This document shows, one piece after another, positions 3,803 through 5,936 of a DNA stretch of 64,000 nucleotides. The DNA comes from Cyanobacteria bacterium P01_H01_bin.74. Lineage in GTDB: Bacteria; Cyanobacteriota; Vampirovibrionia; Vampirovibrionales; Vampirovibrionaceae. The notes beneath the pieces are model-generated. The model worked only from the letters and a program-made list of their open reading frames with translations. It was not told the DNA's origin and made no database searches. The translations under genes were made by a program, and so were the position numbers. The stretch covers positions 871 to 64,870 of the forward strand of contig JBCDLA010000002.1 in assembly GCA_038745945.1 (NCBI GenBank), written 5' to 3'. Every line of letters starts with the position of its first letter. Positions within the stretch are counted from its first letter, which is position 1.

Positions 3803-5443
3803 TTACGCAGTAACAGACAATCTCACAGGCAATTGCATCTGTTGTATAGCAGGTGGCGTTTGCACAGGTGATGAATACATCGGGTAGAGATTGCTGTATG
3901 CCGGCGCAGAACTGTAGGCCGGTGCGGAATTATAAGATGATACAAAGCTTCTTGCCAAAGCGTTCTGGGAGATGCGCTGAGTCATGCCAGCTTGAGTGCT
4001 TAAACTGCTGGGTAGAGGCAGTGGCTTAAAATGAAACCCCCAGGCCAGTGGGGCTGTTTTTGATAAATTGGTTTCAGTAATCGCCCGTTGCCCCCAATGT
4101 TTGGCTTCGCTATCTGTGGCCAGGCCAAGGCTTGCCCTTGAAGACACTTCGTGCAAATCCAAACCTGGAATTTGCATTGCATGAATGAAGTAATTGGTGA
4201 ACAACCCGGAATTTTTGTTTTGAATAGCAGGCAGAGAGTCTCTTGAGGCATACTCTATCCATGTATTAAAGAGTCCAGGAACAGTGCTGACCCATTCTGC
4301 CGGATTCATTTGGTGTTTTAAACCCTGCTTGGCTTCTTGTCGGGGACTTTGGACCGTGAAAGATCCTTCTCTGTTTTGAAGGGGGGTTCGGCAAGCATCC
4401 AGAATAAGAATATTAAACTCGGTTCTTGCCGACTTTAATTGATTTAATAGGTATTTAACTGAAACAGCATGACTCAGAAAACCTTGATCAATGGTGCCAG
4501 TAAAATCAACAGGCAAAAGGTAATTGTTGTGATTGACTGTACCACCATGGCCTGAATAATAAACCAGAGAAACGGCGCCAGGATTAGTTTGCAGAGTGTG
4601 TACAAACTGGGCGACCAGTTGCCGGGTTTGCAGGCCGGTCATATTCAGTCCAGAGAGAACCTGAAACCCATCTTGTTGAAGGCTTTTAATCATTTTACGG
4701 CCATCTTGGGCAGGCCCGCCATGCAGGTCATTTTTGGTGCCAATATAGTCATCATTGGCCAAAACCAGTGCAAATCGGGGCCGGGCATCAATATTATTGG
4801 CAATCCATTGTGGTTTTTGCAGGGACTGTAGACGAACGGCCATCATTTTGTCCAAAACAGCTAAATCAGACAGGCCCAGACTGTCATACAATTCACTTCG
4901 GTTTTCGTAAATCGAGCTGTTATAGGGGTTAATCCGCAACGCCTTATTGAAATCATTCAGTCCCAACTGATAAAAATGATAGGCTTCTTTGGTATTTTTG
5001 ACTTTGGCTTCCTGACTGGCAAGACGTTCCAAGATAATGCCCCGGTTCACTAAAGCGGCAAAGTAGTGCGGATTTATTTTGATGGCCTGTGTGTAATCGC
5101 TATAAGCGTCTGCATAGTTACCGAGCTGGGCATTAATTTTGCCCCGCTCGTGGAATATATCGTAACGTCTTGGGTGGTGGCTCAAATATTCTGTGTAGGC
5201 TGTTAACGCATGCCGGGGATGTTCGATTTCAAAAAGGTGACGCCCCAGATTCTCATGAGTTTGTGCAACCCGAGAAAGTTCTGGAGAAAGGGGGAGGCCT
5301 TGAGTCTTATTGAGTTTTGAAGCATTGCCGAATGATACAGCAGGCCTTGGCTTGGTTTTCAGTGATAGCGTTGTCGCCTGAAATTGGGCCTGAATGGTTT
5401 TGGCGGGTGTTGTTGTGTTGGCAATAAAAGAGACAGCTGACAA
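3803..5443 (-). CDS. TPR-repeat protein fused to a caspase-like (peptidase C14) domain
   Basis: N-terminal half has TPR-like repeats (AYTEYLSHHP..., YADAYSDYTQAIKINPHY, FNKALRINPYNS). Then a caspase fold with both catalytic residues intact: ...FALVLANDDY... YYSGHGG (His) ... ILILDACR (Cys). C-terminal low-complexity SAPAYS repeats. Confidence 0.75.
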   Translation of the reverse strand: MSAVSFIANTTTPAKTIQAQFQATTLSLKTKPRPAVSFGNASKLNKTQGLPLSPELSRVAQTHENLGRHLFEIEHPRHALTAYTEYLSHHPRRYDIFHERGKINAQLGNYADAYSDYTQAIKINPHYFAALVNRGIILERLASQEAKVKNTKEAYHFYQLGLNDFNKALRINPYNSSIYENRSELYDSLGLSDLAVLDKMMAVRLQSLQKPQWIANNIDARPRFALVLANDDYIGTKNDLHGGPAQDGRKMIKSLQQDGFQVLSGLNMTGLQTRQLVAQFVHTLQTNPGAVSLVYYSGHGGTVNHNNYLLPVDFTGTIDQGFLSHAVSVKYLLNQLKSARTEFNILILDACRTPLQNREGSFTVQSPRQEAKQGLKHQMNPAEWVSTVPGLFNTWIEYASRDSLPAIQNKNSGLFTNYFIHAMQIPGLDLHEVSSRASLGLATDSEAKHWGQRAITETNLSKTAPLAWGFHFKPLPLPSSLSTQAGMTQRISQNALARSFVSSYNSAPAYSSAPAYSNLYPMYSSPVQTPPAIQQMQLPVRLSVTA

Positions 5444-5936
5444 AGTACAACAAGACTTTCATACTTTTTTGCGGAGAACTTTATGAGGGGTTTTTGCAGT
5501 AATAAATTTTGCGCTTGTTTTAATGGATTAATTAAAGAACGTTTTGGTTAGATACATCCTGCCTGGCCTTGCTAGTATTGCAAGCACCAGACTTTCAAAA
5601 CTTTGGGGCTTGGTGTTTTCACAGCGTTATCTAAACTGTTGTTATCTAAAGTCATTGTTCTAATACAGAATACCCAATTAAAGTAAAAACATACAATAAA
5701 ATGTCGCAGGCTCTAATGACTTACCACCGTATACCGCTTGATGAAATTGAATTTTTACAAAATTTTACAACAAAAGGCTATTTTCTGCGGACTTTCATTT
5801 CTGCCACTTTTATGGGCTGGGTCCATTGAATTCAGTATTTTTGAATGGGCAGGTTTAAAAAACCAGCGCTACCCTGGTGAAACGGTCTATAATAAAAAGT
5901 GAGGTTTTCTGGTTTTCTTTTAAGGGTTTCTAAAAC

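Follow-up and report, generated by a model that had tools for sequence, protein, structure and literature searches.

The window analysed here, a 64,000-nucleotide stretch of DNA from a relative of Vampirovibrionales, carries a complete reverse-strand gene for a protein in which a TPR module precedes a peptidase C14 domain. The gene and the features of its product are as follows.

3803..5443, (-) strand: complete coding sequence of the TPR-C14 protease, 546 aa, TTG start, TAA stop at 3803-3805 (ORF listing)
5294..5443, (-) strand: N-terminal region of about 50 residues, T/A/S/P/K-rich, predicted disordered (pLDDT <50)
5327-5341, (-) strand: AVSFG motif in the N-tail, residues 35-39
4820..5284, (-) strand: TPR module, residues 54-208, eight helices in about four TPR-like pairs (AlphaFold2 pLDDT >90)
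4028..4783, (-) strand: peptidase C14 (caspase/hemoglobinase-fold) domain, residues 221-472
4703..4705, (-) strand: Asp247, second acidic S1-pocket residue, D-to-D with MALT1 D365 in the phmmer alignment
4541..4561, (-) strand: YYSGHGG motif, residues 295-301, with catalytic His299 (codon 4547-4549), aligned with MALT1 YYAGHG
4388..4402, (-) strand: LDACR motif, residues 348-352, with catalytic Cys351 (codon 4391-4393), aligned with MALT1 LDMCR
4397-4399, (-) strand: Asp349, S1-pocket residue within LDACR, aligned with MALT1 D462
4280..4351, (-) strand: flexible loop between the large- and small-subunit-like halves, residues 365-388 (pLDDT <50)
3806..4000, (-) strand: C-terminal low-complexity tail of 65 residues, 482-546, predicted disordered (pLDDT 29-37)
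3893-3928, (-) strand: two copies of SAPAYS in the C-tail, as two 18-nt units identical at 14/18 positions
3806-3832, (-) strand: LPVRLSVTA, the C-terminal end of the protein

Translation from the TTG start gives an N-terminus, 'MSAVSF', that agrees with the 'MSL.SF' N-termini of homologues, and gene calling on Logan contig SRR22824304_705528 recovers the same gene. An alternative start or frameshift leading into a signal peptide, by way of an out-of-frame ATG at 5462 that opens 'MKVLLYFVSCLFYC...' (61 codons), was rejected because of the agreement between the N-termini and because no homologue has a signal peptide. The GC and GC3 of the gene equal those of its neighbours, and the gene appears native to, and vertically inherited in, a Vampirovibrionales-related lineage.

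On the 3' side lie two convergent genes for Zn-dependent dehydrogenases (ADH), with 53 nt to the ADH stop, and on the 5' side the divergent flagellar stator genes motA/motB, about 490 nt off. The position between metabolic genes given in a preliminary description thus holds for the 3' flank and not for the 5' flank. The wider surroundings consist of housekeeping, flagellar and chemotaxis genes, with a tRNA and aroE among the neighbours. Pfam scans of window ORFs, among them all flanking genes within about 5 kb, detected no gasdermin, cas, TIR or other defence gene, and there is no CRISPR-like array anywhere in the 64 kb. Conserved synteny was considered and rejected, as the ADH and motAB flanks are absent even from the locus of the closest relative, P0001, whose gene adjoins an AAA_16+HEAT (STAND-like) gene. 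Flanking genes are housekeeping genes that vary between lineages; an upstream set of photolyase, TetR, amine oxidase, CbiX and epimerase genes is particular to Vampirovibrio-like loci.

The TPR module is supported by Pfam matches to TPR_2/TPR_1 at residues 96-127 and TPR_17 at 165-195, by a further match to TPR_11, and by PDB matches to the TPRs of OGT, TOM70 and HOP. N65 and N133 correspond in position to the 'Asn ladder' asparagines of OGT, and so does N181, which is placed by repeat register only; across the orthologues N133 is invariant and N181 nearly so. In the AlphaFold2 model, the TPRs form a rigid four-repeat module directly N-terminal of the protease. The Peptidase_C14 profile (Pfam PF00656; MEROPS clan CD) matches residues 223-442 over profile positions 2-212 of 233, with E=1.2e-22 and 81.2 bits against a gathering cutoff of 21.4. 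In the same model (pTM 0.75; pLDDT >90 over most of residues 50-480), an alpha/beta caspase core follows the TPR helices, and the model and fold comparison together place the protein in the caspase/hemoglobinase alpha/beta fold. The domain architecture proposed earlier, an N-terminal TPR array fused to a C14 domain, is upheld by the Pfam matches, the MALT1 alignment and the fold comparison.

By usual nomenclature the protein is a prokaryotic 'orthocaspase', and it is structurally closest to the MALT1 paracaspase (human; PDB 3V4O, 3UO8), with which it shares the His/Cys dyad and two S1 acids. Sequence alignment places H299, C351, D247 and D349 on MALT1 H415, C464, D365 and D462, where H415 and C464 are taken, by count from known positions, to be the catalytic residues in YYAGHG and LDMCR. 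The sequence and profile alignments with MALT1 end just past the catalytic Cys (the family-profile version at profile position 349), and the S1-pocket comparison covers two acids, D365 and D462, rather than the third, E500. Within this range, the earlier statement that both catalytic motifs are intact proved correct, as both align with the MALT1 motifs at the caspase catalytic positions. The likeness has its bounds: identity to MALT1 is only about 20%, and the window protein is bacterial, with TPRs at the N-terminus in place of the death domain and Ig domains of type I paracaspases, for which it has no Pfam match at E<=1.

Forty-seven full-length, co-linear orthologues (TPR then C14) were found, with E values from 4e-113 to 9e-59 and 74-89% of the query covered. 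At 38-47% identity, these full-length orthologues occur almost only in Vampirovibrionales/Melainabacteria genomes. Nine of the 11 GTDB genomes that contain them are labelled Vampirovibrio, Vampirovibrionales or Melainabacteria, the other two being MAGs labelled Coleofasciculaceae or Oculatellaceae, and the annotation 'caspase family protein [Vampirovibrio chlorellavorus]' stands on one member of a cluster. The window protein pairs with P0001 on a long, deep branch in the tree of the orthologue group. Outside the family, the nearest relatives are at most 34% identical and are mostly tandem double-C14 proteins, and the other TPR+C14 proteins found (P0048, P0067, P0098 and P0101) all carry the C14 domain first. 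The bacterial chromosomal context of the gene, a HemB with 100% identity to that of the MAG 'Cyanobacteria bacterium P01_H01_bin.74', and the occurrence of orthologues in Vampirovibrionales genomes indicate a prokaryotic origin. Overall, the family looks small, lineage-restricted and apparently vertically inherited in one bacterial order; nothing relevant was found in the literature on Vampirovibrio or Melainabacteria caspases or metacaspases.

The alignment of the orthologue family has 47 invariant columns. His299, Cys351, D247, D349, R352 and the whole YYSGHGG motif are unchanged across 48 orthologues, the window protein included, and this invariance of catalytic and S1 residues at 38-47% identity indicates purifying selection on an active enzyme. 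Because the acidic S1-pocket residues are conserved, as in Arg-specific MALT1, cleavage after Arg or Lys, not Asp, is predicted. The protein is probably a C14-family cysteine endopeptidase that is catalytically competent and resides in the cytoplasm. That it is instead a catalytically inactive pseudo-protease serving as a TPR scaffold only is very improbable: pseudo-orthocaspases are common in cyanobacteria (PMC6426788) and several motifs conserved in the family are altered in the window protein, but pseudo-orthocaspases typically carry Tyr/Ser in place of His/Cys, whereas here dyad, S1 acids and YYSGHGG are all retained.

The 365-388 loop contains the basic residues R368, K372 and K376, varies in length across the family and is a candidate autoprocessing or regulatory loop. 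Most orthologues conserve [KR]-x-W-E-x-E-P-G-P-G-L at its end, and the window protein has diverged there. Its departures from near-invariant family motifs comprise WETEPGPGL to WVSTVPGLF and QHARTQTDLSRTEP to QRAITETNLSKTAP, and because of this divergence its regulation may differ from that of the rest of the family.

Both ends of the protein are predicted to be disordered. Motifs related to the N-tail AVSFG, 'D-S-x-S-F-Q' or 'VSF', occur in the N-tails of many orthologues. The preliminary description reported a C-terminal Ser/Ala/Pro/Tyr repeat tail; the low-complexity tail is real, with an S/A/Q/P/Y-rich composition (S12 A9 Q7 P7 Y5 in 65 residues), and the repeat itself is minimal, limited to the two SAPAYS copies. 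TRF at score >=30 reported no repeat over this region, and no SAPAYS repeat is present in the tails of the homologues. What recurs in orthologue C-tails is 'P-x-[VFM]-R-[LI]-[SP]', for example NPLPHVRLS in 9 sequences. Signal peptides and TM segments are absent from the window protein and from all 47 orthologues, in which the 19-residue Kyte-Doolittle mean peaks at <=1.3. Without a Sec/Tat-type hydrophobic signal the protein is most likely cytoplasmic by default, which is compatible with non-classical export via a T4SS or flagellar T3SS. Docking of the tails in cis on the TPR groove or active site was considered and rejected: AlphaFold2 gives the tails pLDDT of about 50 or below and docks neither of them in the window protein or in P0018, so no cis-regulatory contact is predicted.

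In at least 10 distinct orthologue loci, a small ORF lies tail-to-tail with the protease gene. The partner protein has 63-81 aa, is of low complexity and probably disordered, and bears a conserved 'FGxxTVSFG', whose 'TVSFG' resembles the N-tail AVSFG; it ends in 'G[TRK][RK]L[DN]xYA-COOH', which contains Arg/Lys. In V. chlorellavorus, the protease WP_303673573.1 has such a neighbour of 67-71 aa. Six-frame motif scans and tblastn with seven partner sequences found no partner ORF in the window, either downstream of the gene or across the 64 kb. The long C-tail was considered as a substitute for the partner, and this was rejected since the long-tailed P0013 keeps its partner ORF. Protease and partner could together form a switch of the separase/securin or PP5 type, with the partner acting as pseudosubstrate, inhibitor or substrate in the TPR groove, and the window lineage could have lost or relocated the partner, its own AVSFG and PVRLSVTA-COOH look-alikes acting in cis. 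We regard this scheme as speculative and improbable; if true, the switch might set the timing of one step in the attack or division cycle of these bacteria.

Like the cyanobacterial orthocaspases, the window protein is a prokaryotic C14 protein that combines an HC dyad with an acidic specificity pocket. MaOC1 of Microcystis aeruginosa and the other orthocaspases characterised to date cut after basic residues and autoprocess (PMC5756287, PMC8283722); the corresponding acidic S1 pocket (basic P1) is present here, by sequence alignment and as a predicted specificity, as D247 + D349. Orthocaspases are often fused to protein-interaction repeats, with TPR_1/2/11/12/16 among the accessory domains (PMC5756287, PMC8283722). 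In described orthocaspases, however, accessory domains are 'generally located C-terminally' to C14, whereas the TPRs here are N-terminal. A TPR ahead of C14 is thus an uncommon domain order, and TPR-bearing prokaryotic caspase homologues as such have already been described. The host, from a non-photosynthetic lineage related to Vampirovibrionales, also differs from those of MaOC1-type cyanobacterial orthocaspases. GSU0716 of Geobacter sulfurreducens (PDB 3BIJ), a bacterial caspase-fold protein, lacks a TPR module and is 16% identical to the window protein.

Comparable TPR or helical-repeat arrangements exist in TPR-autoinhibited PP5, separase and TPR-CHAT/Csx29. In TPR-CHAT/Csx29 (Craspase) and eukaryotic separase, N-terminal TPR or helical repeats precede a clan-CD protease with a His/Cys dyad, the same logic as here, and the repeat module in these systems mediates regulation and substrate handling (PMC9729208). 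In the window protein, the concave face of the TPRs may similarly bind an extended peptide of a substrate or regulator and so select or gate access to the active site. Like other caspase homologues, the enzyme would become active through dimerization, through cleavage in the 365-388 loop, or through both. Its role would most likely be regulatory, by limited proteolysis of one or a few proteins of the cell; that the protease belongs to a mobile defence system appears unlikely.

Known defence examples include gasdermin-activating caspase-like proteases, TPR-CHAT in type III-E CRISPR and TIR-activated caspase-like immunity. Caspase-like proteases with fused or cooperating TPRs act in defence (PMC9729208; bioRxiv 10.1101/2021.06.07.447441; 10.1101/2024.10.24.620036), and the preliminary description likewise mentioned defence and cell-death contexts. 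An executor of defence or programmed cell death, activated by phage or stress and cleaving a pore-former or essential proteins, would be in line with the match to the PADLOC 'caspase' model (E=4.5e-9), the weak match to the NCBIfam model 'caspase, EACC1-associated type', and the STAND-like gene beside the closest relative. However, the PADLOC model is generic, and the NCBIfam score of 32.9 bits against a cutoff of 140 places the protein outside the EACC1-associated caspases (NF047832). Membership of TPR-CHAT/Csx29 was rejected, as no CHAT domain (PF12770) is detected and the neighbours are ADH, motAB, tRNA and aroE genes rather than a type III-E locus with gRAMP/Cas7-11, Csx30 and an array. 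Membership of a gasdermin-activating protease system was rejected too: the flanking ORFs within about 5 kb belong to other families, and the homologue loci examined, where gasdermin-like or effector neighbours had been suggested as a check, contain no gasdermin. Housekeeping flanks that differ between lineages, a one-order family with tree-like divergence, and native GC3 are further unlike mobile defence islands. A defence role is thus unlikely, and the context suggested earlier is not borne out at this locus.

We consider it improbable, too, that the protease is a predation or virulence effector, exported through a conjugative-type T4SS or flagellar export into algal or other prey and cutting host proteins after Arg. 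In favour of export, the family does not extend beyond relatives of V. chlorellavorus, a species proposed to inject hydrolytic enzymes via a T4SS (PMC4451040). A eukaryotic paracaspase gives the best structural match, the gene and motA/motB diverge in the window, and the long, variable, disordered termini without a Sec signal resemble those of many T3SS/T4SS substrates. Yet secretion-system genes adjoin the protease gene at none of the loci examined, the motAB adjacency is not conserved, and the closest C14 proteins beyond the family are multi-C14 proteins of an ordinary bacterial kind. Predation is documented for one species only, and no C14 peptidase appears in the accessible part of the supplements to the V. 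chlorellavorus genome paper.

Prokaryotic caspase homologues are abundant, with 21,866 representative clusters having a C14 domain match at E<=1e-3, and to our knowledge almost none has a known substrate. We also know of no cultured member of the non-photosynthetic cyanobacterial relatives other than V. chlorellavorus, and the family occurs there. What the window gains is chiefly a secure annotation, with a place in a defence island unlikely. For the biology of these bacteria, a compact, single-copy-looking and lineage-restricted family whose active site is intact, whose peptide-binding module is defined and whose members mostly have a small, tightly linked partner gene offers a tractable entry to a non-defence role of bacterial caspases.

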